Source: Alphaproteobacteria bacterium
Lineage (GTDB): Bacteria; Pseudomonadota; Alphaproteobacteria; Sphingomonadales; Sphingomonadaceae
DNA length: 64,000 bases
Direction of reading: 5' to 3'
Assembly: GCA_003241875.1 (NCBI GenBank)
Contig: QBLU01000012.1
Location: 757 to 64,756, forward strand
Below, one piece after another: positions 6,393 to 20,437 of this stretch. The position numbers were made by a program, and so were the translations under genes. The notes under the pieces are model-generated. The model searched no databases. It was not told where the DNA came from and saw only the letters and a program-made list of their open reading frames with translations. Each line of letters begins with the position of its first letter. The stretch's first letter is position 1.

Positions 6393-9300
6393 TCAGAAGC
6401 GCATGATCGCCTGCACCGTGTAGCGGCGACCCAGCGCGTCATAGGTCGACGGGAAGGTGTTGCCGCTGTTGAACAGCGTGCTGCCGACCGACGCGCCGAC
6501 GATCGGCGGCAAGCGGTTGAACAGATTGTTGACCGTGCCGATCAGCGTCAGGTTGGGCAGCACGTTCACCCGGCCGGTCAGGTCGAAATAGTGATAGGCC
6601 TTGATGCGGCGGAACCGCTCGTCGACGACGCAGCCATCGGGATCGGCACCCGTCGGATCGGCGCAACCGGAATCGATGGCGGCGGCGACATCCTCGTTGA
6701 ACTGCTGCGGTTCGAAACGGACCGGATCGATGTAGCGCCACAGCACCGAGACATCGAAGCTGTCGAACCCGAAGGTGGTGCGCAGCGACGACTGGAACTT
6801 GGGCTGGATCGAGCCGGTGAACGAGCAGTTCGGCGAATAATAGCCGACGCAGTCGCGGCCAGGCGAGGACGGCGAGGCCTGGAACGATGAATCGAGGGTC
6901 AGGTTGGCGTTGCCGACGATCGCCAGCTTGGCAAAGCCGACGCTGGTCGAATAGCTGATCGAGCCGTCGATACCGCGGGTGAAGATGCGGCCGGCGTTGG
7001 TGGTCGGCAGCGGCAGGCCCGGCGTGGTGTCCGGCGGACCGTCGAGGCCGCCCGTCGCCGGGTTGCGCCGGATGGCAAGGCAGGCCGGATTGGTAACGCT
7101 GGCAGCGCTGAGGTTGTTGAAGCAGGCGCCGACGACGTCGCCCGGCAGGGCCGAGGTGATCGCTTCGTTGACCCGGATGTCGTAATAGTCGGCGGTGATG
7201 GCGAGGCCGGGCACGAAGCTCGGCTGCCAGACGACGCCGGCCGTCCACGTGTCGGCCTTTTCCGGACGCAGGTTGGTGTTGCCGCTGAACACGGCATTGG
7301 CTTGCGCCGCGGTCGGGTTCTCGATGCCGCCGATGCTCGCCACCGGCGCGCCCTGGGCGAGGCAGACGGCGCCGAGGGCGGCGTTCGTTGCCGGGCCGGA
7401 ACCGGCGCAGGGATCGATGCCGAGGTTGGTCAGGCCGACGGTCGCCGGGGTGAACAGTTCACCGATGTTCGGCGCGCGGACGGCGCGGCTGTAGTTGCCG
7501 CGGACCTTGAGCCCGGCACCGATGCCCCAGCTGCCGCCGGCCTTCCAGGTGAAGGCGTCAAAGCTGGGATTGCCCGGCGCGTCGACATTGTACTGCGAGT
7601 AGCGGGCGCCGGCTTCGAGCGTCAGGTTCTCGAAGAACGGCCGGTCCTGCAGCAGCGGCGCGATGATTTCGCCATAGACTTCCTTGACGGTGTAGGCGCC
7701 GGTGATGTTGGGGGCAGCGCCGCCGGCACCGCCGAGTTCGCCCGGCGTCTGCGACAGCAGGTCGGAGTTCTGTTCGGCGGTGTACTTGCGATATTCACCA
7801 CCGATGGCGAAGCCGATGGCGTCGGATGCGGTCGGCAGCGCAAAGCCGAGGTCGCCGCTGACCAGCCCGCGGACCTGGGCGAGGGTGGTGCGGACGGTCG
7901 AGGTGCTCTGCGCGGTCAGGAAGTTCGCGGCCTCGGGCGAGATCGAGCCGCCGGGGCCGAAGAAGTCGACCGGCACGCAGCCGTTGGTGGGATCGAGGCA
8001 GGTCGTCGGATCGGTCGTTAGCAGCGACTGGCGCACCCGCGACGTCAGCGCATAGCCGCTGATGGTCTGGATGTTCTCGCTTTCGCCATAGCTGCCCGAC
8101 AGGTCCCAGTTGATGGAGTCGGTGACCTTGCCGCGCAGGCCGGCGCGGAAATCGAAGATGGTGGTGCGGAAGTCGCTCTGCCGCGGCCCAAGCTCGGTGG
8201 TGCGGCGCGCGAGGCCGGTTTCCACCGTGCGGTAGTTGGGATCGGTCGGATCAACGGCGGTGGCAGCCGCGGCGCATTCGCCGGGGGTGAACAGCGGCAC
8301 GTAGGTGCCGGCGGCGCCGGTGTTGCGGGCGCAGAGCTGGCTGCGCAGGCCGGCGGGGAGGAACGGGTTCGACAGCGGGATCGTCACGTTGGAGCCGAAC
8401 GAGCCCGACGGCGCGACGATCGTCGACACGGTGTTCCTGGAGAACAGGCCGCGGCTGTAGACCTCGACGGCGTCGCTGATTTCATAGCGGGCCTGGCCGA
8501 ACATGTTGAAGCGTTCGAACGGGGTCTGGAAGGCATTGAAGGGGTTGAAGTTGAACGGCGCGTACAGGTTGCGGCCGAGACCGGTCGCGGGATCGATCTG
8601 CAAGTTGCCGTTGGGGACTGCGGGGTTGGTGGAGGGCAGGCCGGTTGCCGGATCGATCGGGCGCGCGCCGGTGAAGCGCGACGGGATCGCGGTGCCCGAG
8701 CCGCCGGTGACGCCAAGGTAGCTGTCGAGGTTCTCGGCGCTGAAGTCGCGGGCGCCCTGGAAGACTGCATCGCTGCGCTGATAGCCGATCGACAGGGTGG
8801 CATTGCCCTTGCCGTCCTCGAAATTGGCACCGATCGTCGCGTCGGCGCGGAAGCTCTGGCCGTCGCCGGCTTCGGTCAGGCCGTTCGACAGCTGCAGCTC
8901 GACGCCGGTGAAATCCTGGCGGGTGACGAAGTTGACGACACCCGAGATGGCGTCGGCACCATAGGTGGTCACGGCGGCACCGGTGAGCGCATCGACGCGC
9001 TGGATCAGCGCCAGCGGGATGTTGTTGAGATCGACGACGCCGCCGAGGCCGGCGGGCGTGATGCGGTTGCCGTCGAGCAGGACGAGGTTGCGGTTCGACC
9101 CGATGCCGCGAAGATCGACGAACGAGGCGCCGCCGTTGCCGTTGTTGACCGCCGAACCGATATTCGGAACGACACCCGGGATGTCGCGGAGGACTTCTTC
9201 GGCGACGTTGGAGGCGCGCAGCTGGATGGTCTCGGCCGTGGTCACGGTGACCGGCTGCGACGAGATGAGGTTCGGGTTGCGGATCAGCGAGCCGGTGACG

Positions 9301-9962: not shown

Positions 9963-10484
9963 ATGGCACGCGGTGTGAAGTTCTGGCACGGCGACATGGT
10001 CGCCAACACGGTGTTCCCGCTCGAAAACAACTACAGCCAGGCCAACAAGGCCGACCAGGGCATCTGCACGGCCGCGGCGCTGGCCTGGTGTCGCGCCTCG
10101 CTGAAGCTCGGCCGCTTCGTGAACAGCTGGGCGGAGATCGGCACCACCGTCCACAACCTCAACATCGTCATGGCAACGCTGCGGCATCTCGATGCCAATC
10201 CGGTGGCGCAATGCGAGCTTGCCGGGGTCCGGGCGCTGGGGGGTGATCGCACCTGCGCCGGCATCGAGGAGGCGATGACCAACATCAAGCCGTCCGAATA
10301 CGGGATCGGCCTGTTCTGGAACAGCTATCACACGATGGCGTTCGGCTACAGCCACCTGCAGAAGGACTTTTTCGACATGAACTATGGGCTGTTCAGGTCG
10401 AAATACACCGCCGGCATCAAGGCCAAGGTGCAGGAACTCTATGGCGACGACATCATCGGCTACCGCCTCATCGGCAAGCTGTAG
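9963..10484 (+). CDS. Small stand-alone YopT/AvrPphB-like (peptidase C58) papain-fold cysteine protease
   Basis: Predicted triad C35 (QGICTAAALAW), H123 (YHTMAF), D138 (FFDMNYGLF); His-Asp spacing of 15 and the FFDxNxG motif match the C58 signature. Confidence 0.72.
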   Translation: MARGVKFWHGDMVANTVFPLENNYSQANKADQGICTAAALAWCRASLKLGRFVNSWAEIGTTVHNLNIVMATLRHLDANPVAQCELAGVRALGGDRTCAGIEEAMTNIKPSEYGIGLFWNSYHTMAFGYSHLQKDFFDMNYGLFRSKYTAGIKAKVQELYGDDIIGYRLIGKL

Positions 10485-10519
10485 CGCCGCCGGGCGTCTG
10501 CCGCCGGCGGCGCGACGCC

Positions 10520-12469
10520 CTACAGCTGCATCGCCTCCAGGCTGTCGAGCGGAATGAAACGCGGGGCCGCGGGCTCGGCGCCTTCCTGCGGGCGGAACAG
10601 CGGGTCGGCGGCGGCATAGGCCGAAAAATCATGGCCGGTGGCATCGGCGAGGTCGGTCACCGCGATCTGGAAGGTGCGATATTCGCCGAGCACGATGCCC
10701 TCCATCGCCTCGGTGCGGCTGCGGCGTTCAAGCAGGTCGCGGATCAGCTGGCCCTGGCTGAGCAGATAGGCGGTGGCGCGCAATCTGGTGCCGGTCTCGT
10801 CGAGCGTCGCCACCAGCTTCCAGTATTCGAGCGGCACGGTGGCGCCGTCGATGACCGGGTCGTCGGGGCCCAGGATCGGCCCGGTGAACACCGAGGCGAG
10901 GAAGCCGCCGGTGCGGGCATTGTCGAGGATGTAGTTTTCCAGCCCCTGCCACAGCAGCTTGCCCTGGTTGAGCTGCGAATGCTGCGGCGCGGCGTTGACG
11001 TAATGGAAGGTGTCGTCGTTGGCGAGCTGCGCCGATCCGCCCCAATTGGGGTCCTCGCGGCGCACCAGATGGCCGCGGTCGATCTCGGCATCGGCAAAGT
11101 TGGTCGACCCGAGCTGGATGGCGGCGGGGATGCGCAGGTCGGCGAACCACTTGTCGCGGCCGCGCTTGATGCGCACCGTCTTCTGGCCGTCGATGTTGAC
11201 CGCGGTCATCAGCGGCACCTTGGCTTCGGCGGAATATTTGACGCCGAAATGGGTGTAGCGCAGCTCGCCCGGCTCCTTGGGCTTGTCGGACGGCCTGGCA
11301 AGGCCGGTGGCGAGCGCCGGCGCCAGTTTTGGCCACGGCGTCGCGACCTTGCCCTTGCCGAGGAACTTGGTTGCAAAGCCCTTGCGGCCTTTGAAGAAAT
11401 CGGCGGCATGGCTGCCGTCGGCGAGGCTTTCGGTGGTCGCTTCAGCGCGGGCGCCACCGCCCGGCACCGCGACCGCCCTGCCCTTGAGCAACGCCTTCAG
11501 CGTCTCGACGCCGACGGCGCTGTTACCCTGGCCGAAGACGCCGGCGAAATGCAGGCCGACGACCTTGCCCGATTCCAGGCTGATCAGCGGCGATCCCGAA
11601 TTGCCGCCGAGGCTCGTGCAATCGTGCATCAGCAGCGTCTGGCCGGTCAGCGCCTGGGTGACGCGGCCCGGCGCCAGGCGCTTCACGTCATACAGGTCGC
11701 GGAAATATTTCTCCTGGGCGCCGGGATCGTTGCGGGAGTCGCGCGCCGGATAGCCGATCAGCGTCACCAGCTCGTCGAAGCCTGCTTCCTTGTCGGCGAG
11801 CGGCAGCGGCGACGGCTTGACCGGCGCGGTCGTCGCGACGCGCAGCAGCGCGCAATCGGCGGCGAGGTCGTCGGCGAGATATTCGATGGCGACGATCTGC
11901 ACGGTGTGGCTGGCACTGCCGCCGCTGCTGCCGTCTTCCTCGCGGAAATCGATGGCGATGCCTTGCCGGGCGCCGCCGGGGCTGCGCAGGAACACGCCGC
12001 TGCCGTTGGCGGCGCGCTGCGCGACCAGCTTGGCGACGTGGCGATTGGTGATGATGATGTCGCCGGTGGCGCGGCGATCGACGACCCAGCCGGTGCCGCC
12101 CCAGCGCATCGTCGAATTGACGAATTCGACGCGGCCGACCGACGGGATGTATTTCTGCACGCCGATGATCTTGGCATCGGCGCCGGGCAGGTCGGGCAGC
12201 GGCTCGAGCACGACCTGGTCGTTGCGGATCAGCAGCGGCGGCCGCCCGGTCAGCCGCACGATGGCTTCCAGCGCCGGCAGCGGCAGCAGGCTTTCGAGCT
12301 CGGCGGCGTCGCGTCCGGTGGTCGTCTCGATCTCGACCGGCAGCTCGGCGGCGACGGCGGGCGGCACGTTGCCGGCGGCGAGCCGGGCATTCACCGCCTC
12401 CACCATCTTGGGGGTCAACAGCCCGCGCAGGGTTTCGCGGCGTTCGGTGGTGTCGGCGGCGTCAGACAT
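10520..12469 (-). CDS. Trypsin-like serine protease fused to DNA/RNA non-specific (EndoG/NucA-type) endonuclease
   Basis: Protease triad ITNRHVA / ADCALL / GGNSGSP; nuclease DRGHLVRR...ANDDTFHYVNAAPQH..LNQG..WQGLE. Start at ATG 12469 with AGGAG RBS, overlapping the upstream stop; 649 aa. Confidence 0.9.
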   Translation of the reverse strand: MSDAADTTERRETLRGLLTPKMVEAVNARLAAGNVPPAVAAELPVEIETTTGRDAAELESLLPLPALEAIVRLTGRPPLLIRNDQVVLEPLPDLPGADAKIIGVQKYIPSVGRVEFVNSTMRWGGTGWVVDRRATGDIIITNRHVAKLVAQRAANGSGVFLRSPGGARQGIAIDFREEDGSSGGSASHTVQIVAIEYLADDLAADCALLRVATTAPVKPSPLPLADKEAGFDELVTLIGYPARDSRNDPGAQEKYFRDLYDVKRLAPGRVTQALTGQTLLMHDCTSLGGNSGSPLISLESGKVVGLHFAGVFGQGNSAVGVETLKALLKGRAVAVPGGGARAEATTESLADGSHAADFFKGRKGFATKFLGKGKVATPWPKLAPALATGLARPSDKPKEPGELRYTHFGVKYSAEAKVPLMTAVNIDGQKTVRIKRGRDKWFADLRIPAAIQLGSTNFADAEIDRGHLVRREDPNWGGSAQLANDDTFHYVNAAPQHSQLNQGKLLWQGLENYILDNARTGGFLASVFTGPILGPDDPVIDGATVPLEYWKLVATLDETGTRLRATAYLLSQGQLIRDLLERRSRTEAMEGIVLGEYRTFQIAVTDLADATGHDFSAYAAADPLFRPQEGAEPAAPRFIPLDSLEAMQL

Positions 12470-15400
12470 GGGACGTGACTCCTGTGAGGATGGCGAGCGG
12501 GGGGACAAAGGCCGAGGGAATGTCGTGGTCGAGCAGGGCGCCGGCGCGGGCGAGCGGGTCGGGCAGGGCGGCGACGATGCCGAGCACCCGGGTGTGGCGG
12601 CGTTGCAGCCGGGACAGCAGCCCGGGGCCGTCGCCGGCGGGATCCCACAGCGCCAGCTGCCGCATCGCCCAGTCGGCGGGATCGTCGAAATCGGCGAGTT
12701 TCTGGACGCGGCGCCGGATGATGCTGTCGGCGCCGCCGCCGCGCCCGTCCCCGCCCACATCCGGGCCGAGCCAGCCCGGCGGCGGCGTGTCGTACGACCA
12801 GCGGCCGGCGACGGTGCGGCGCCAGCGTTCGGCGGCGGCGGCGAGGGTGCCGAGATCGGGGTCGCGGTGGCGCCAGGCCTCGGCGCCGGCCCATTCGGCG
12901 AACAGGCCGAGCCCGGCGATGCCGGCGATGGGGTTGCCGGCGACCGGGCCGAGCCCGAGCGGCGAGCCCGAAAACAGCCCGCCGGCCTGGGCGAGCCGGG
13001 CGTCGGCGGCGCGCGCCGCGTCGATCAGCCGGTCGTTGCCGCGCAGCACGGCGAGGTTGGCGGCGATGATCGGATAGGGCGACAGCGCCACCAGCATCTG
13101 CGGGTCGTTCCATTCGATCGCCGCCGCGGATACCAGCCCGCGCGCGCCGAGCCGTTCGCGCACGACGCCAAAGGCATGGGCGGTCGCCGGCGCCTGGCTG
13201 CGGCGGCCGTCGGGCGCGGCGATCCAGGTGTCGAGCGCGGCCGCCACCGCGTCGCCGTCCTTCGACGACCACAGCGGCTCCTGGCGATGGCCATTAGCGG
13301 CGAGCACAAAGGCCAGCGCCCCCTGGCGGGCAAGCGGCCCGGCGTTGCGCATCGCCTCGGCGATCAGCCGGTCGATGCCAGGCAGGGCGAACATGCGCAG
13401 CAGCCGCGGCCGGGTGAATTCGGACCGGATCTCCAGCCGGGCGATGGCGAGCTGCAACGGGAGGCCGAAGACTTCGCCATCGTCGCGGACCAGCCGGTCA
13501 CGCTCGGCGAACATGCGCCGGGCGCGGTGCCAGCGGCCCGAGCGCCAGTAGAAGGCGCGGATGGCCATCGCCGCCGGCTGGCGCGGATCGAGGCCGCCGG
13601 CGGCCGCCATCTGGTCGACGACGAACTGGCCCTCGGCCCAATCCTCGCGGTCGATGAGGGTGAGGACCTCGGCCGCCAGCGCGGCGTCGTCGACCGTTGG
13701 TGCGGCGGCTTCGAGGACGCTGTCGCCGCCCTTGCGCAGCTTCGACGACCGGCGCCCGGCGGCGCCGGCAACGAGATCCTGCGCCACCGGCGGCAGCTCG
13801 GCGAGCATTGCCGGCTCGAACTGCTGCGCCACTGCGGTGGGGATCGCCGGGCGGGCCGGGCGAAAGCGCATCAGCTGTAGCCGGTGATAGGCGGCATCGA
13901 CGTCGGAGCGGGGGTCGCTTTGCCGCGCGAACCAGGCGGCGGCGGCGGCATCGACCCTTTCGCACAGCCTCGGCTGGTCGCGGTAGAGCAGGGGCAGCAG
14001 GATGGCGCGCATGTCGCTGCGATGGATGACGAAATCGCGGGCGACGGGATCGCGCTGGACGAGCCACAACTGGCCCGCCAGCGCGTTGAACAGCGCTTCG
14101 GCCCGGCCCGCGGCGAGGCGCGGCATGCCGAGCGCCGGCGCCAGCACATCGCCGAGGAAGCCGGCGCTGATCCGGCGTGCGAGCAGGCCGGGGTGGGCGA
14201 GCCGGCGCAATTCGGGGTCGTCGATCCGCGACAGCAGGATGCGGTAGAGGAACGCCGCCGCCACATCCTTGTCGATCGCGCCCTGCGGCAGTTCGCCGAC
14301 GCCATGGTCGCGGACCACGGTGGCGGCGAGGCGCAGCACCAGCGGGTTGCCGTCGGCGAGGTTGGCGATGGTCGCATGCGCCGCCGCCGGCACCTCGAGC
14401 CGGGTCAGCAACGCCTCGGTCGCCGGCGCATCGAGGCCGTCGAGCGGCACCGCCAGCCCGACCCGGCCGGGAGCGCTGTCGAGCGCGGCGCCGCGACCGG
14501 CGGCGAGCACGGCGAGCGGCCGCAGCCCGGCCGACAGCAGCGTGTCGAGCCAGCGGAACAGCCGCTCGGGATGTTCCTCGCCGCGGGCGCGCAGCACTTC
14601 GACGGTGTCGAGCACCAGCAGCACCGGCCGCCCGGAGGCGCGCACCGCGTCGCCGATCGCCGCGGCGAATTCGGGCGGCACGCTGCCGCGGCTGCTGTTG
14701 CCATAGCTTTCCTCGCCGCGGGTGACGCTGGCGGCGCGCAGCCGGGCGTCGAGCACCGGCTTGCCGGCGTCGCCGAGCCGGTCGGCGACCTGGCGCGCCA
14801 GCTCCATCGTCAGCCCGAGCAGGTCGTTGACGTCGAGGCCGGCACGGTCGAAATCGAGCCGCACGACGATGCACCCGTTGGCATCGGCGACGCTCGCATT
14901 TCCGGCTTCCGCAACACCGGCATCGCCGACGCGGCCGGTGACTTCCTCCAGCAGCGTCGATTTGCCGATGCCGGGGTTGCCGGCGATGTAGGCGGCGCGC
15001 ACCGGCAGCGCGACGAGCGGCTTTTCGAGCCAGGCGATCAGCGCCGCCGTCTCGCCTTCGCGCCCGAAGAAACCGCGCGCCTCGAATCCGCGGCGCCGCG
15101 CCTGGCGGTCATGGCGGGAGAGCGCCTGGCGGGCGTCGACGAGGCGGGCGCCGGCGGGGGCCGGCGGGCCGGCGCGGTCGAGCGCGGCGACGATGCGCTC
15201 GATGAGCGGGCGATCGGGCGTCGGCGCCGCGAGCGCCTGGGCGATGGCCGCGTCGGTGAAGGCGCCGTCCCCGGCCAGCGCCGCCAGCAGGTCGGCGGCG
15301 GGCAGGTCGGGGTCCTGGCTGCGGCGCTCGGCAACGGCGGCGAGCAGCTCGGCGCGGGTCGTCAGCTGCCGGTCGAGCACGAAGCGCCGTTCGCCGCTGC

Positions 15401-15611
15401 GGATCAGCCAGCGGGTGCCCCGGGGGCTGCCGGTGTCGAGATCGGTGTCGCAGGCGGCGGCGAGCGCCGAGGCGACCTGGGTGGTCAACCCCGCCCCACT
15501 GACAGCAGCCGCACGCAGCGCGGCGATCGGCTCGAACGGGCCGGACAGCGCCGCATAGCGTTTGGCGCGGATGACATAGGGGACGACATCTGGATCGAGC
15601 GGGCCGCTCAT
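12462..15611 (-). CDS. STAND-class (AAA_16-like) P-loop NTPase, 1049 aa
   Basis: GFFGREGE pre-Walker motif; Walker A GNPGIGKS; Walker B LLVLDTVEVL; GNPLVLRLAA (GxP); helical, partly TPR-like C-terminal region. Start at ATG 15611 in an ATGA overlap with the upstream stop. Confidence 0.85.
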   Translation of the reverse strand: MSGPLDPDVVPYVIRAKRYAALSGPFEPIAALRAAAVSGAGLTTQVASALAAACDTDLDTGSPRGTRWLIRSGERRFVLDRQLTTRAELLAAVAERRSQDPDLPAADLLAALAGDGAFTDAAIAQALAAPTPDRPLIERIVAALDRAGPPAPAGARLVDARQALSRHDRQARRRGFEARGFFGREGETAALIAWLEKPLVALPVRAAYIAGNPGIGKSTLLEEVTGRVGDAGVAEAGNASVADANGCIVVRLDFDRAGLDVNDLLGLTMELARQVADRLGDAGKPVLDARLRAASVTRGEESYGNSSRGSVPPEFAAAIGDAVRASGRPVLLVLDTVEVLRARGEEHPERLFRWLDTLLSAGLRPLAVLAAGRGAALDSAPGRVGLAVPLDGLDAPATEALLTRLEVPAAAHATIANLADGNPLVLRLAATVVRDHGVGELPQGAIDKDVAAAFLYRILLSRIDDPELRRLAHPGLLARRISAGFLGDVLAPALGMPRLAAGRAEALFNALAGQLWLVQRDPVARDFVIHRSDMRAILLPLLYRDQPRLCERVDAAAAAWFARQSDPRSDVDAAYHRLQLMRFRPARPAIPTAVAQQFEPAMLAELPPVAQDLVAGAAGRRSSKLRKGGDSVLEAAAPTVDDAALAAEVLTLIDREDWAEGQFVVDQMAAAGGLDPRQPAAMAIRAFYWRSGRWHRARRMFAERDRLVRDDGEVFGLPLQLAIARLEIRSEFTRPRLLRMFALPGIDRLIAEAMRNAGPLARQGALAFVLAANGHRQEPLWSSKDGDAVAAALDTWIAAPDGRRSQAPATAHAFGVVRERLGARGLVSAAAIEWNDPQMLVALSPYPIIAANLAVLRGNDRLIDAARAADARLAQAGGLFSGSPLGLGPVAGNPIAGIAGLGLFAEWAGAEAWRHRDPDLGTLAAAAERWRRTVAGRWSYDTPPPGWLGPDVGGDGRGGGADSIIRRRVQKLADFDDPADWAMRQLALWDPAGDGPGLLSRLQRRHTRVLGIVAALPDPLARAGALLDHDIPSAFVPPLAILTGVTSHV

Positions 15612-17380
15612 ATGACGGCCTTGAACATGGCGCGGACGGCCGGGCGCAGGCGCTCGGCGACCTGGCGGGCGGCCCAGGGGCTGTAGATGCCGTTGACTTC
15701 GTCGAGGCCGGCGAGGCCCATCTGCACCAGCTCGGCGACGCGTTCGGCCGAGGGCGACTTGCCCGCCGCCGCCGCCGCATCGGCGAGGAACAGCCGCACG
15801 TCGCTTTCGCCGAAGCCGGTGACATAGTCGGTCATCAGGCCGGGCGCGCCGATGTCGGGCGGGTTGGGCGGCGTCTGGAATTCGAGGCCGGGGATGGCCA
15901 CCGCCTCGAAGCCGGCGACGACGAGGCGCAAATTGGGCAGTTTCAGCGCCTGGTCGATGAAGCCTTCGAGTTCGGCGCGCATGGCATCGCCAAAGGCGAT
16001 CGCCGGATGGTCGATGAACAGCCAGAGCTGGCGGCCGACCGCGGCGGCCGTGGCGTCGAGCGCGGCGGCGGCGCGGCGGCCGCGATCGGCGCCGACGGCT
16101 TCGGGTGCGCTCTGTCCGGCGGCGACGCCCGGGCGATCCTCGATGGCGGCGCATTCGAAGCCGACCGCGGCGGCGCGGCGCAGGATGTCGTTGGCCAGGT
16201 CGGGGATCAGCGTTTCGAAGCTGATGCGGCACTGCCGCGTGTCGGGGCTGCGCGCCGTCATGCGGTCGAGCATGGCGAAGGAAAAGGCGAGGCCGGCGAG
16301 ATTGCCCGCCGCATCGGCGCGCTTGACGCGGATGCCGCGCACCCGGCCGTTGCCGCGGGCCAGCGCAAAGGCCTCGAAAAACGACTGGCGGCCGATGACG
16401 AACTCGCCATCGGGGGTGCCGTCGAGCGACCACATCCGCGGCGGTGCCAGGTCGGTGGTAACGACCGGCAGGATCCTGTCGTAGAATTTCGCCGTCGGCA
16501 CCAGCCGCCCGCCGTCGCGCCAGCCCTTGCCCTGGTGGATGCCGGCAAGGGTCAGCGTCGCATCGAAGCAGCCGCCGCCCGACGAGCCGCCACGGGTTTC
16601 GACGCTGTGGCCCCAGCGGCTGGTCAGGCGCGGGATCTTGGCCAGGCTGCCGATGCCGATGCCCTTGTCCTCGCCGTCGGGATAATGGACGACGATGACG
16701 GCGGCGCGGCGGCTGTAGGCGCCGGGTTTTGTCGGCAGCGGTGCCGATCCCATCAGCGCGCCGGCGGGGCGGGCGAGCCGGATGATGGCATAGTCGTTGT
16801 TGTCGCCGAACAGCGTGTCGTCGCGCGGCAGCCGGCTGGCGGCCTCGTCGGCGGTGGTCGGCGAGGCGACCAGCGGCGGCATCACCGCGTCGATCGAGCG
16901 GCCGTCGGACAGCAGCACGGTGACCTTAGACCAGGGTTCGGCGACCATCGTCGGGGTCGCGGCGAGGACATGGAAGGCGGTCAGCACCGTCGTCGGGCCG
17001 ACCAGCACGCCCGATCCCATGACGACGCCGTCGCGCAGGATGCGGCAGCGAAAGGCGGCGGCGCGGGCGAGGAAGGCGGCGGCCTTGACCGGATCGAGGT
17101 TCGATGCGGCGAGGTCCACCGCGCCGAACGCGGCGCCGCCGAAATCGATGGCGACACCGCGCACGCTGAGCGCCCGGGCAAAGGAATCGACGAGGTTGCG
17201 GCCCTGCAGCTGTTCGACCCAGAAGTCGCCGGGCGGCCGCCCGAACATCTGTGCCGCCGCGGTCAGCCCCGCCGCCTCCAGCCGCGGCCCGGTCGCATCG
17301 AGCATGACGGCGCCGAGCGCATCGGCGGCGACATCGGGGTGCGAATCGATCGCCGCGGCAATGTCGGCGGCCTCCCACAT
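15608..17380 (-). CDS. Trypsin-like serine protease with N-terminal helical domain and C-terminal degenerate (inactive) STAND-like domain
   Basis: GSGVLVG..VLTAFHV / NDYAIIRL / GGSSGGGCF triad intact. The C-terminal FVIGRQSF...LWLFIDHP follows STAND topology but has no GK[ST] Walker A. Confidence 0.78.
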   Translation of the reverse strand: MWEAADIAAAIDSHPDVAADALGAVMLDATGPRLEAAGLTAAAQMFGRPPGDFWVEQLQGRNLVDSFARALSVRGVAIDFGGAAFGAVDLAASNLDPVKAAAFLARAAAFRCRILRDGVVMGSGVLVGPTTVLTAFHVLAATPTMVAEPWSKVTVLLSDGRSIDAVMPPLVASPTTADEAASRLPRDDTLFGDNNDYAIIRLARPAGALMGSAPLPTKPGAYSRRAAVIVVHYPDGEDKGIGIGSLAKIPRLTSRWGHSVETRGGSSGGGCFDATLTLAGIHQGKGWRDGGRLVPTAKFYDRILPVVTTDLAPPRMWSLDGTPDGEFVIGRQSFFEAFALARGNGRVRGIRVKRADAAGNLAGLAFSFAMLDRMTARSPDTRQCRISFETLIPDLANDILRRAAAVGFECAAIEDRPGVAAGQSAPEAVGADRGRRAAAALDATAAAVGRQLWLFIDHPAIAFGDAMRAELEGFIDQALKLPNLRLVVAGFEAVAIPGLEFQTPPNPPDIGAPGLMTDYVTGFGESDVRLFLADAAAAAGKSPSAERVAELVQMGLAGLDEVNGIYSPWAARQVAERLRPAVRAMFKAVI

Positions 17381-17386
17381 CGCCGG

Positions 17387-18628
17387 TCAGGCATTCCAAG
17401 CCAGCGGGAATCGTTCGGGAACGCCGCTGCGCAATTCGACCGGCGCGGTGGGATGCAGGCCGGGCAGCAGCAGCAGTTGCCGGACGATCTCGCCGAGCAT
17501 CGGCCGGGCGATGGCGCGGCCGAGGCATTCGTGGATGCCCTGGCCGAAGGTGAAATTGTCGCCCTGCGCGCGGTGCGGGTCGAAACGGGTCGGATCGGGG
17601 AAGCTCGCCGGGTCGGACATGGCGCTGTGGGTCATCGCCAGCACGGTGGTGCCGGGCGGGATCATCTGCGCGTGCGGCGTACCGCCGGCGACCTGGGTGG
17701 CGCGGTGGCAGGTGCGGAAGAAATAGGGGAAGGCCGGGCGGAAGCGCAGCGCCTCCAGCGCGACGCCGTCGATGGCTTCGGGCGGGGCGGTGCGGGCGAG
17801 GTGCTGCGCCTCGGCGAGGGCTTCGGGGCGCGAGAACAGCTCCGCCATGACATTGTTGACGCAGTGGTTGGTCGTCTCGACGGCACCGATCAGCAGCCCG
17901 CCGGCGTTGAACAGCACCTTCTTGACGCCGAACTTGACGCCATCGGAAAAGGAAATCTGCAGCAGCCGCGTGATCGGATCGTCACCGCCGAGCCCCAGCT
18001 TCACCGCGATCGAGCGGCGCAGCACCAGCCGGCCGATGAACAGGCCAAGCCGGATGCTGCTGCGTTCGCGCCCGGCGGTGATCTCCGCCGATCGTGCCGC
18101 GCTCTGGCCGTCGAACGGCTGGTTGTGGAAGGCGTCCTGCTGGTTCCAGTAGGACCATTCGATAAGGTCGGCGGGGTCCTGGCCGTCGAGGCCGAAGAAC
18201 TGCTGCACCATGTCGACCGGCACCTGGCGGCTGAGCGCGGCGGGCACGTCGATCTGGCCGTTGGCCGCCATCAGCAGATTGGCGGTGCGATCGGCGACCC
18301 AGCTGCGGATTTCGGGAATCTGCTCGAAATCGAGCACCGCCTTCATGATCGATTTTTCGCGCCAGTGGTTGGCGGTATCGTCCTGCGCCATGAAGTAATC
18401 GCCCTGCTTGGGCTTGTAGAGATCGACGCCGAAATCGGCGTGGCGGCGCAGCACCAGGGCGCAATCGGCGTGGCGGAAGACCAGGGTCAGCTCGGGCAGC
18501 ACGATCACCGGCCGCTGTTCGCGGACCTCGGCAAAGAACGGGTGGGGTTCCTGCCGCATCCAGCCGCGCACCAGCGGCCAGCGTTGGGCCGCCGGCGTGG
18601 CGTCGAGCCGTTCGAGATAGCCTGTCAT
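17387..18628 (-). CDS. Cytochrome P450
   Basis: I-helix GLLIGAVETT; ExxR (EALR); FDPHR; heme motif FGQGIHECLG. Confidence 0.93.
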   Translation of the reverse strand: MTGYLERLDATPAAQRWPLVRGWMRQEPHPFFAEVREQRPVIVLPELTLVFRHADCALVLRRHADFGVDLYKPKQGDYFMAQDDTANHWREKSIMKAVLDFEQIPEIRSWVADRTANLLMAANGQIDVPAALSRQVPVDMVQQFFGLDGQDPADLIEWSYWNQQDAFHNQPFDGQSAARSAEITAGRERSSIRLGLFIGRLVLRRSIAVKLGLGGDDPITRLLQISFSDGVKFGVKKVLFNAGGLLIGAVETTNHCVNNVMAELFSRPEALAEAQHLARTAPPEAIDGVALEALRFRPAFPYFFRTCHRATQVAGGTPHAQMIPPGTTVLAMTHSAMSDPASFPDPTRFDPHRAQGDNFTFGQGIHECLGRAIARPMLGEIVRQLLLLPGLHPTAPVELRSGVPERFPLAWNA

Positions 18629-18646
18629 GTCCTGCCCCCGCAGCGT

Positions 18647-20437
18647 CTAGAGCGATTTCAGATATTCGAGCAGCGCCTGGCGCTGGGCTTCGGTGAGCTT
18701 GGCCACCCCGTATTCATGGCCTTCGCTGCCGTTGCCGGGGATCGCGAAGCCGTCGGCGGCCTGGGTGGCAAAGCGGAAGCTGTTGCCGGGCGCCGTGGCT
18801 TCCGTGCGATAGCCGACCTTGACGGGATCGTACTCGCGGGTGCCCATCATGAACGCCTTGGGCCGCTGCGCCGCCGGCAGCAGCAGGTCGTACAGCGTTG
18901 GCACCGAGCCGTTGTGGAGGAAGGGCGCCGTCGCCCAGATGCCGTCCAATGGCCGCGCCTTGTAGGCCATGTGCGGGCTGCCGGACTTGTAGCAGGCGTC
19001 GAGGACCAGCGGCCGCATGTCGGGCGCCTCCTCGATGACGACGCGCGGGGCACCGCCGCCGCCGAAGAACACCTTGGCGGTCTGGCCGATGATCTGGCCC
19101 TTCTTGCCGATCAGCGCGCCCTTGACGGTGGTTTCCAGCATCTCGGCGATCGGAGCTTCGGCGCCGAACTTTTCGCCGCTGCCGATATAGCCCTTGGTGG
19201 TGCCCTGCAGATTGCCGGTGGCGGATTTGTAGGTGATGGCGTTGCACGCCATCCATGGGTCGGTGGCGTTCGGCCCGGGTTTCAGCGGGATCATCGCCGC
19301 CTTCTGGAATTCGCCCGGGTCCTTCTTGTGGCAGCCCTCGCAATCGGCGGCGAACAGCGCCTTGCCGGCGGCGACCTTGGCCGGGTCGAGCGCGCCGAAG
19401 TTGGCCGGCCAGGCCGGCGACTTCAAGGAGACGAGCTGGGTTTCGAGGCGGATGAGATTGTCGGCCTGGACGCTGGATTTGTAGCCGCCGAGCCCGCCGC
19501 CCGGTGTCACCGTGATGTCGCCGAAGACGCCGATGACCTCGCCGGCGTTGCGGCCGAGCGCGCCGTAATCGAGGTAGCGGTTGCCGCCCAGCGACAGCCG
19601 CTGGTTCTGGGCGATGCCGTTCCACTGCAGCTTGTCGAAGCGGTGGATGTCCCAGATGTGCGGATAGCTGACCGGGGCGTCGGCGGGGTTGCGGGTCGGG
19701 CTGGCGGCACCGGTGAACAGCGCCACCTTGTTGAAGATGTGGCCAAAGGCGTCGACGCGGCCATAGCCATAGCGCAGCGGCGTCTTGTTCATGTCCTCGA
19801 CGCGGTCTTCCCAGGCGAGCAGCCTGGCCAGCGCGGCGCGCAGCAGGGTGCGGTTGCCGGGCGCGTCCTTGCTGCCGAGCGCCGCCTTGGCGAAACGGTC
19901 CCATTTTTCGGAGCCGTCGGGGGCGTTGACGGTGGCGCGCACGGCAGCGTCGAGGTCCTCGACAAAGGTCTGATAATCGAACAGCGCCGGGCCGCCGTCG
20001 ACGCGCATCGCCTTGCCCTGGTAGGTCAGCTCGGCGGTGTGGCAGGCCGAACAGTTCATCCCGACCCATTTTTCCTTCGGCCCCTGGCCGGCGAACCAGC
20101 GCAGTTTCGAATTGGCGAGATTGCTGTCGTCACTGTCATCGACGACGAGTCCGATCGGCAGCCGGTCGCTGTTGGGGCGCGGCAGCAGCCGCCACTGGGC
20201 GATGGTATCGGGGCCGAGGAAGGGCTTGGCCGCGTCAGGCTGTTCGAGCGCCAGCATCCAGGCCAGCGGCATCAGCCGGGAGCCCTGCGTCGCCGAATAC
20301 CAGGCCGATTGCTGCTGCGGCGACCAGTTTTGCCAGCCGGCCTGCGGCGCCGCATTGGAATAGGAGGCACAGGCCGCGATGGTCGCAGCTGTCGATAATG
20401 TTGCCAAAGCCTTGAGTATCAAAACGCGGTCGACCAT
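18647..20437 (-). CDS. Di-heme cytochrome c lipoprotein, RoxA/MauG/CcP-like
   Basis: Lipobox TIAAC; two CxxCH motifs (CSACH, CEGCH); YGYGRVDAFGHIFN; YKARPLDGIWATAPFLHNGSVPTLYDLL; GGGGAG RBS. Confidence 0.85.
   Translation of the reverse strand: MVDRVLILKALATLSTAATIAACASYSNAAPQAGWQNWSPQQQSAWYSATQGSRLMPLAWMLALEQPDAAKPFLGPDTIAQWRLLPRPNSDRLPIGLVVDDSDDSNLANSKLRWFAGQGPKEKWVGMNCSACHTAELTYQGKAMRVDGGPALFDYQTFVEDLDAAVRATVNAPDGSEKWDRFAKAALGSKDAPGNRTLLRAALARLLAWEDRVEDMNKTPLRYGYGRVDAFGHIFNKVALFTGAASPTRNPADAPVSYPHIWDIHRFDKLQWNGIAQNQRLSLGGNRYLDYGALGRNAGEVIGVFGDITVTPGGGLGGYKSSVQADNLIRLETQLVSLKSPAWPANFGALDPAKVAAGKALFAADCEGCHKKDPGEFQKAAMIPLKPGPNATDPWMACNAITYKSATGNLQGTTKGYIGSGEKFGAEAPIAEMLETTVKGALIGKKGQIIGQTAKVFFGGGGAPRVVIEEAPDMRPLVLDACYKSGSPHMAYKARPLDGIWATAPFLHNGSVPTLYDLLLPAAQRPKAFMMGTREYDPVKVGYRTEATAPGNSFRFATQAADGFAIPGNGSEGHEYGVAKLTEAQRQALLEYLKSL

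Follow-up and report, generated by a model that had tools for sequence, protein, structure and literature searches.

In a 64-kb window of a Sphingomonadaceae genome (contig QBLU01000012.1), by which we mean the whole stretch of DNA that was analyzed, five minus-strand genes at 10520-20437 were examined and designated A to E. Three of them, C, D, and E (the trio), look like a kind of system that has already been described; judging from their sequences, they very probably form a member of the CARD-NLR/LypABC type of bacterial NLR-like cell-death systems. The new element looks to be the operonic and repeatedly re-formed link of this trio to the two remaining genes, A and B (the haem pair), which encode a RoxA-like di-haem lipoprotein and a cytochrome P450, respectively. 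The repeated joining of the haem pair to the trio, and also to other protease sets, suggests an undescribed oxidative accessory arm. We consider a CARD-NLR/LypABC-type trio with a coupled two-gene haem module to be a fairly likely explanation of the locus as a whole. Going by its closest named homologue, the window resembles DNA of Sandarakinorhabdus.

Linkage of the haem pair to the trio

Gene A (18647..20437, minus strand, 596 aa) encodes an exported di-haem c-type lipoprotein with a RoxA-like fold, and gene B (17387..18628, minus strand, 413 aa) encodes a cytoplasmic cytochrome P450. They are followed by gene C (15608..17380, minus strand, 590 aa) for a LypA-like adaptor protease, gene D (12462..15611, minus strand, 1049 aa) for a LypB-like STAND/NLR-like NTPase, and gene E (10520..12469, minus strand, 649 aa) for a LypC-like protein containing a trypsin and a NucA-type non-specific endonuclease. 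An earlier note on this DNA had described two gaps followed by two overlaps between these minus-strand genes, and this was borne out by the sequence. The A/B junction is an 18-bp gap and the B/C junction a 6-bp gap, which reads TGA-ccggcg-ATG; C and D overlap by 4 bp (ATGA), and D and E overlap by 8 bp (ATGTCTGA), with an aggag Shine-Dalgarno sequence upstream. The flanks of the five-gene block given in that note, a TonB-dependent receptor gene and a DUF885 protein gene, were also confirmed. In a promoter and terminator scan, the sites found were no more numerous than in shuffled sequence.

About 150 related loci were compared, and they are labeled with L-numbers (L007, L011, and so on) in this study. 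The haem pair is a pair in its own right: among the 72 metagenome loci and the several genomes to which B led, A adjoins B wherever there is room, and the two genes were arranged as A>B, as B>A, convergently, or split by three genes. The complete A-B-C-D-E order recurs in at least six other genomes, namely those of Sandarakinorhabdus sp. DWP1-3-1, two metagenome-assembled genomes, Sphingobium sufflavum, Sphingomonas sp. GB1N7, and GCA_942642805. In these blocks the identity of D is 49-92%, the B/C gaps are 6-12 bp, and at least four different flanking contexts were observed. Furthermore, the order C-D-E-A-B was found in L011 and L087 with gaps of 16, 21, and 7 bp, and A-B followed by a LypC-like gene alone was found among housekeeping genes in L076 and L077 with gaps of 4 and 3 bp. 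The window has gaps of 6-18 bp and the other arrangements have gaps of 3-21 bp, so that no separate promoter or terminator would fit between these genes.

The histories of the two gene sets were compared using trees of E and B. In the E tree, the trios of the C-D-E-A-B order stand on their own branch with 100% support, outside the 99% clade containing the A-B-C-D-E trios; this clade also holds Caulobacter, Pseudomonas, and actinobacterial trios. In the B tree, on the other hand, all of the trio-linked P450s form one 96% clade, and its sister group consists of the loci with A-B and a LypC-like gene and some A-B-only loci. The disagreement between the two trees therefore indicates that one A-B lineage was combined with two divergent trios. 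The pairwise identities are in line with the trees: those between the window and L011 were 55% for A, 65% for B, 32% for C, 35% for D, and 51% for E, and those between the window and a trio-only Caulobacter locus were 42% for C, 45% for D, and 58% for E.

Both gene sets are rare. Orthologues of B were found in 3 of 401 Sphingomonadales genomes and D in only 1 of the 401, and chance adjacency is accordingly negligible. The five-gene arrangement is far beyond chance, and we regard a functional coupling of A-B to the trio as likely. The link of the RoxA-like/P450 pair to the trio is unmentioned in the papers on conflict systems (PMC7159879, PMC13236601, and PMC10312443), and full-text literature searches for P450 or di-haem enzymes in defence systems gave nothing relevant. 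The earlier note had singled out the haem pair as unusual, and rightly so, as the pair proved to be linked to other protease sets in addition to the trio.

Characterization of the trio

The trio was surveyed by a pattern scan based on the alignment of the D family with one genome per species, which yielded 61 loci, and the gene order was determined by tblastn. The order C, D, E was found in essentially all of the 61 loci, which are spread over four phyla. The hosts include Sphingomonadales, Caulobacterales, Rhodobacterales, Acetobacteraceae, Xanthobacter, Burkholderia, Pseudomonas, many Actinomycetota, and Chloroflexia. The distribution is patchy, the trio being present in 3 of 41 relatives including the genome of the window itself. 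D was found on two megaplasmids and B on no plasmid, and no relative of D was found on viral contigs. A Paraburkholderia trio adjoins GmrSD, BrxR, and insertion sequence (IS) elements.

The only Pfam family found in C was Trypsin_2, which leaves about 370 further residues without a family. The AlphaFold2 (AF2) model of C, with a predicted local distance difference test score (pLDDT) of 88 and a predicted template modeling score (pTM) of 0.84, showed three domains. The N-terminal domain (aa 4-73, ~17156-17380) is a predicted five-helix bundle with a block pLDDT of 81-95, followed by a disordered linker. The trypsin domain (aa 97-311, ~16448-17092, Pfam Trypsin_2) contains the catalytic residues H137, D196, and S266, which are invariant in 34 homologues. 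The C-terminal domain (aa 332-590, ~15611-16387) was assigned from the AF2 topology as a degenerate P-loop/STAND-like domain: its strand order is of the ASCE type, comprising beta1, a loop, alpha1, beta3 (LWLFID), beta4, beta5, and a helical lid. At the place of Walker A the sequence is GNLAGLAFS, in which GK[ST] is missing, and the S-F pair corresponds to the mutated residues S360/F361 of LypA. When the C and D families were aligned by hhalign, C aa 327-481 fell into the Walker A/B register of D, with a weak and non-significant score (E 0.23). In a Foldseek search with the full model of C, the top 50 matches were all of the trypsin fold, and the flanking domains consequently remained without a fold class. 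Taken together, the AF2 topology supports the proposal of the earlier note that C combines a trypsin with an inactive STAND/ATPase domain, as is also the case for the published LypA.

D matched AAA_16 of Pfam (1.2e-9) and, weakly, nSTAND1. Its NTPase core (aa 178-374, ~14490-15080, Pfam AAA_16) has an intact Walker A (G211, G214, G216, and K217, followed by S218) and an intact Walker B (D335); among 16 homologues, which come from Proteobacteria, Actinomycetota, and Chloroflexota, the residues G211, G214, G216, K217, and D335 do not vary. Beyond the core, D has a C-terminal region of about 650 aa, which is conserved throughout. E matched Endonuclease_NS (4.7e-43) and Trypsin_2 (2.3e-16), corresponding to the nuclease domain at ~10616-11266 and the trypsin domain at ~11519-12097, both on the minus strand. 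The catalytic residues H144 and S291, H467 of the DRGH motif, and N501 are all present in E. The intact catalytic motifs that the earlier note had read in the trypsins, the nuclease, the NTPase, the P450, and the CxxCH haem sites were thus found again, and the catalytic residues of all five proteins are invariant in the family alignments. No Pfam match was obtained with the isolated N-termini of C, D, and E or with the isolated C-terminus of C.

In PADLOC-DB v2, the trypsin part of E matched the 'nacht'-associated model PDLC03010 (4e-13), and C gave only a weak match to LmuA (0.0035). D was unmatched at E <= 0.01, and A and B were also without a system match. The comparison with Avs1 made in the earlier note was not supported, as no PADLOC Avs model matches D.

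Fusions of D and E into single polypeptides of about 1,660-1,740 aa were also observed (P0012, P0019, P0024, P0062, P0068, P0079, and P0245, for example in Agromyces), and these support a direct functional link between D and E. As for the base composition, the guanine-cytosine (GC) content of C and D (12000-17000 of the window) is 72-74%, that of the flanks is 65-68%, and that of A, B, and E is 67-70%; C and D, the genes highest in GC, are also the fastest evolving ones of the cluster.

The closest published counterpart is LypABC of Caulobacter, which is called CARD-NLR by DefenseFinder (Banks et al., Nat Microbiol 2026, PMC13236601). In that system, LypA consists of a helical CARD-like N-terminus, a trypsin, and an ATPase domain that lacks Walker A/B; in LypB, an N-terminal domain is combined with an Orc1-like AAA+ domain, whose Walker A/B are intact, and with a long region of TPR-like repeats; and LypC consists of a trypsin and a NucA-type endonuclease. 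The gene order and the domain content of C-D-E are alike, and the sizes are similar (about 65, 112, and 73 kDa for LypABC and 590, 1049, and 649 aa for C-D-E). The spacing from the nuclease His to the Asn is 34 residues in E and equals that of the mutated LypC residues H471/N505. Both LypABC and C-D-E are rare and patchy within a genus. In contrast to the locus in the window, where A and B lie upstream in the same operon, LypABC has no adjacent haem genes according to PMC13236601. The role shown for LypABC is the release of the gene transfer agent (GTA), with the lytic effector left unidentified in that study. C-D-E is likened to LypABC by architecture.

CARD-NLR operons of the Azospirillum type likewise consist of three genes, encoding a CARD-protease, a repeat-containing ATPase, and an effector that carries a trypsin (Wein et al. 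2023, PMC10312443; PDB 8SRZ and 8SS1). These operons are enriched beside defence systems, and related systems have been validated against phage (PMC10312443). C-D-E shows the same order of adaptor protease, STAND ATPase, and trypsin-fused effector; the first protease carries a C-terminal ATPase-like domain without the Walker A lysine, and D is a STAND-class ATPase and putative sensor whose Walker A/B are intact and whose C-terminal region is long. The first protease of CARD-NLR systems has a CARD, whereas the N-terminus of C is a predicted five-helix bundle without a sequence match to 8SRZ or 8SS1. The effectors described in PMC10312443 are modular and include gasdermin, phospholipase, and endonuclease. 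In L019 (Sphingomonas sp. Leaf67; lipase at 6804-8174) and L021 (Sphingobium terrigena), C-D is present without E and a gene for an LCAT/PGAP1-like lipase lies directly upstream of C; this is an effector swap, which is typical for modular CARD-NLR systems. No oxidoreductase accessory is described for CARD-NLR in PMC10312443, unlike the locus in the window.

Comparative genomics had also predicted a System 3, composed of NucA and several trypsin peptidases with an optional STAND NTPase (Kaur, Burroughs, Iyer, and Aravind, eLife 2020, PMC7159879). C-D-E has this NucA and trypsin core, with several trypsin paralogues per operon. System 3 is mostly alphaproteobacterial and is predicted to be a proteolytic cascade deploying NucA, a computational prediction only (PMC7159879). 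The STAND domain of System 3 is fused to a trypsin and a Death-like domain, whereas here the active STAND is separate and a trypsin is fused to the inactive one; P450 or cytochrome c is not mentioned in that paper.

The earlier note had regarded the five genes as the best candidate for an undescribed system in the window, unless an existing model already had the same architecture. This turned out not to be so for three of the five genes, as C-D-E has the architecture reported in PMC10312443, PMC13236601, and PMC7159879. On the other hand, its reading of a STAND sensor, a protease, and a nuclease gained support from the domain content and from the matching published family.

Characterization of the haem pair

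A scored 566 bits with the NCBIfam family NF040606 of di-haem cytochrome c peroxidases, for which the cut-off is 150, and a RoxA-like_Cyt-c domain was detected by Pfam. The two haem motifs are C129xxC132H133 (20039-20053) and C366xxC369H370 (19328-19342), both of which are invariant in 31 aligned orthologues. A lipobox, IAAC, is formed by residues 20-23, with the lipobox Cys23 at ~20369-20380. A lipobox or a signal peptide is present in most A orthologues, and neither occurs in B, C, D, or E. When the AF2 model of A (pLDDT 80.7) was searched against the PDB by Foldseek, the sole significant match was RoxA (4b2n), with E 5e-11, a probability of 1.0, and a template modeling score of 0.45 over the full length. 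RoxA is the oxygenase of rubber (poly-cis-isoprene) from Xanthomonas sp. 35Y and is, like A, an exported protein with two CxxCH haems and the same fold over the full length. Unlike RoxA, A is a lipoprotein of NF040606 that is always paired with a P450, and the identity between the two is about 18%. Orthology of A to RoxA, RoxB, or RoxC was not found, the scores being 47-53 bits against NCBIfam equivalog cut-offs of 900-1000. The fatty-acid di-haem dioxygenases PA2077 and PA2078 are a further comparison for A (PMC4496055).

B matched PF00067 (p450) of Pfam with 64.9 bits against a cut-off of 22.8. The loop of the Cys ligand, FGQGIHECLG, is encoded at 17519-17548, and the ExxR residues E292/R295, the acid-alcohol pair E251-T252 of the I-helix, and Cys368 are invariant in 12 orthologues. 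The nearest PDB relatives are generic class I P450s (EryK and PikC) at only 1e-22. More than 1,000 P450 homologues of B were found at E <= 1e-10, and the best 120 of these are at least 57% identical to B. No gene for a ferredoxin, a reductase, or another redox partner was found within the cluster. Both A and B have a normal length and carry no adaptor domain of the CARD or EAD type.

Protease genes near the haem pair were counted in 19 dereplicated loci sampled through B, each with at least 6 kb on either side; A adjoins B in 16 of them. Protease neighbours were present in 9 of the 16 A-B loci and absent from 7. A LypC-like gene lies beside A-B in three of the 16 loci, two of which contain the full trio. 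An astacin gene was found in five of the 16, two of which also contain genes for a C14 caspase and an M64 peptidase, and a C14 caspase gene with a trypsin gene was found in one. In L078 and L085, the order astacin > C14 > hyp380 > B is in one orientation, with A divergent. In L089, A > B is followed by an Amidase_2-astacin gene, which overlaps the P450 stop by 4 bp, and in L150 the genes for astacin, trypsin, and C14 are divergent from A-B. The astacins near A-B have no signal peptide or propeptide, and the caspases match the PADLOC caspase model.

The gene of L089 (2485-3903) encodes an N-acetylmuramoyl-L-alanine amidase (Amidase_2) fused to the astacin. In addition, a cluster of genes for an astacin, a C14 caspase, and a 380-aa protein without a known family recurs in L074 (G261:C1:892000-911900), L099, L078, and L085, with A-B beside or within it; in L074 and L099, this cluster further contains genes for a 1185-aa protein with a Gly/Ser-rich tail, a 323-aa protein, and an M64 peptidase. 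It looks like another uncharacterized protease-based system.

Effectors gated by proteases have been reported in bacterial immunity, namely the trypsin-metallo-beta-lactamase (MBL) nuclease in Hachiman and AVAST and the caspase-nuclease 'canu' (Tuck et al., Science 2025, PMC12799240; PMC12642450). In these cases, a sensor-linked protease unlocks a latent effector, and the cassette was repeatedly taken up by unrelated systems, much as A-B is recurrently paired with genes for trypsin, caspase, and astacin. These effectors are hydrolases with a gating segment, whereas no such segment was identified in A or B. We know of no haem enzyme that acts as a protease-gated effector.

A small protein gene was found at sister loci that combine A-B with the trio. 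It encodes a protein of 145-155 aa with 3-4 predicted transmembrane helices and the pattern MSLRI...WSTRIAKLIPAEALGLYG...LLWGTxVPYFY, which is 50-76% identical among these loci and closes the cluster in both orders. The gene follows E in L007 (15192-15635), L017 (14968-15399), and L149 (15976-16443), and follows B in L011 (11263-11715) and L087 (~11251-11700). Among the ~150 loci, none with the trio alone or with A-B alone contains it, and it is also absent from the clade of the window itself. The protein, which has no Pfam family, may act as an effector in the membrane or serve as a bridge.

Proposed mechanism and alternative explanations

By analogy with characterized relatives, D would be the sensor, with its long C-terminal region recognizing the trigger, and ATP binding by its intact P-loop would drive oligomerization. 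The N-terminal domain of D would then recruit C via the N-terminal helical (CARD-like) bundle of C and thereby turn on the trypsin of C, the degenerate ATPase domain of which probably still binds nucleotide. C would act with or on E, the trypsin-NucA protein, and the infected or triggered cell would die or lyse. A-B would be a distinct haem module that is coupled to the protease machinery and predicted to be co-transcribed with it. It may serve as an oxidative output arm under protease control, with an unsaturated or isoprenoid lipid of the envelope as its target, and the small membrane protein found at sister loci is a possible bridge. Given the coupling, we lean slightly toward an output rather than an input role for A-B, because protease-gated effectors are marked by a single module that is paired again and again with proteases of several classes. 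The more specific proposal, in which A-B would be the arm of an NLR-like immune system that kills or lyses by oxidation under protease control, joined in sister loci by the small membrane protein, is a tentative one, possible rather than probable.

Several observations weigh against a CARD-NLR/LypABC-type trio with a coupled haem module. With regard to the trio, the membership rests on architecture, motif spacing, and fold topology, because direct sequence homology to validated proteins, that is, to those of C. crescentus LypABC, Lysobacter, or Azospirillum, was not shown; LypB of C. crescentus is absent from the top 120 relatives of the Caulobacter family member. When the C-family profile was searched against the PDB, only trypsins were matched, and the CARD-like domain was unmatched to 8SRZ or 8SS1. 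Furthermore, the nuclease residues of C. crescentus LypC are dispensable, and the role of that system is GTA release and not defence (PMC13236601). With regard to the coupling, neither A-B nor the trio needs the other, as about 53 of the 61 trio loci have no A-B and about 7 of the 16 A-B loci have no protease neighbour. The earlier note had proposed a search for the haem genes beside the trio in distant taxa; the association recurs in three arrangements, and every trio-linked A-B pair is of Sphingomonadales origin or lies on an unclassified metagenome contig. A is exported and B to E are cytoplasmic, which makes a direct proteolytic activation of A hard to picture. The protease link of A-B may also be heterogeneous, because some of the neighbour proteases, such as the trypsin and the caspase of L012, are exported.

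The haem pair could instead be an independent metabolic operon, serving for example to oxidize or cleave a sphingomonad lipid, carotenoid, isoprenoid, or xenobiotic. The trio would then have been inserted downstream by chance, the block would have spread as a unit, and the read-through would be meaningless. This would agree with the presence of A-B alone in ordinary, housekeeping-like contexts (L075, L148, L151, and L084), with that of B without A in several loci (L010, L081, L106, and L110-112), and with the ~53 trio loci without A-B. It would also agree with the normal length and the lack of adaptor domains in A and B, with their different compartments, A being apart from the proteases too, and with the GC content of 72-74% in C-D versus 67-70% in A-B. 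However, gene sets as rare as these (1/401 and 3/401) are adjacent in three arrangements, and a single A-B lineage has become attached to two trio lineages that differ widely from each other. The five open reading frames have stayed intact, with gaps of 3-21 bp, down to 49% identity of D and in at least four flanking contexts; only the combined clusters, in either order, carry the small membrane gene; and A-B is found in single operons with other protease genes (L078, L085, and L089). We regard such a metabolic operon as rather unlikely.

If the haem pair is coupled to the trio, it could still act on the input side, making or sensing an oxidized lipid, peroxide, or haem signal, for instance of envelope or redox damage, that licenses the proteases; the exported A would report from the periplasm to the cytoplasm via a diffusible product handled by B. 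This is a serious rival, because the nuclease of E is intact in all of the haem-linked systems, so that an effector is already there, and because there are minimal clusters of A-B with a protease but without a sensor: A-B with the LypC-like gene and A-B with Amidase_2-astacin have no NTPase sensor and would need some other control of the protease-effector. The split of A and B across the membrane also suits a signal relay. Nevertheless, the window has a full STAND sensor, which makes a second input unneeded, no receptor-type or ligand-binding domain ties the product of B to C, D, or E, and no precedent was found in the literature searched. An input role is a doubtful candidate, about as much so as the metabolic operon. 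A different use of the entire locus was also considered, namely a lysis or release device of the host or of a mobile element, as LypABC is in GTA release, or a device for programmed death that is used among kin or during development, neither of which would be antiviral. The sole genetic study of this architecture found GTA-mediated lysis and no defence-island context (PMC13236601). The locus in the window lies between ordinary genes (TonB receptor and DUF885), and D is on no viral contig, both of which would fit such a device. Relatives of the trio are, however, present in Actinomycetota, Pseudomonas, and Burkholderia, which to our knowledge lack RcGTA-type agents. Some relatives adjoin GmrSD, BrxR, and IS elements, and the enrichment beside defence systems and the phage validation of related systems reported by Wein et al. 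(PMC10312443) also speak for defence. We consider a non-antiviral device of this kind to be unlikely.

CARD-NLR and LypABC are among the clearest bacterial counterparts of the logic of the animal inflammasome. If the oxidative-arm proposal is true, firing of the STAND protein would be followed by the destruction of an envelope lipid of the isoprenoid or unsaturated kind, carried out jointly by the cytoplasmic P450 and the exported dioxygenase with the RoxA-like fold. Such an arm would be a bacterial counterpart of oxidases activated by protease cascades, such as arthropod prophenoloxidase, and a candidate class for the lytic effector that is missing at the downstream end of LypABC-type systems, and systems built on caspases or astacins would use the same module. 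A repeated capture of the haem module would add oxidative enzymes to the immune effectors or signals, which have so far been nucleases, lipases, pores, and NADases, and would give the first functional handle on the NF040606 di-haem lipoproteins and their dedicated P450, a large uncharacterized protein pair. If the link of A-B is only positional, the locus would be an ordinary new member of a known family.

Neighbouring genes

The earlier note had included a convergent open reading frame at 9963-10484 (plus strand, 173 aa) in the system as a C58 protease. Its coding signature is genuine (GC1/2/3 of 0.55/0.41/0.89), and a Cys...His...Asp layout resembling YopT/C58 peptidases was observed, although the Pfam C58 match (E 0.0035) scores only 17.5 bits and so falls short of the cut-off of 23. 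Because no homologue was found in any of the ~150 related loci, this open reading frame was excluded from the system; in L014, the closest relative, the corresponding position is an empty gap of 509 bp. A NifU-like gene downstream of B in some loci and the nearby TonB receptor genes were judged incidental.

A gene for a patatin-like phospholipase lies directly upstream of A in S. sufflavum (L007:3482-5002) and is not kept in the sister locus L017; another is located about 4 kb from A-B in L012 (15323-16477). In the A-B-only locus L084, a low-GC gene for a ParB-like N6/N4 DNA methyltransferase (11638-12975) is inserted directly downstream of the P450 gene, suggesting that this site is a target of mobile elements.

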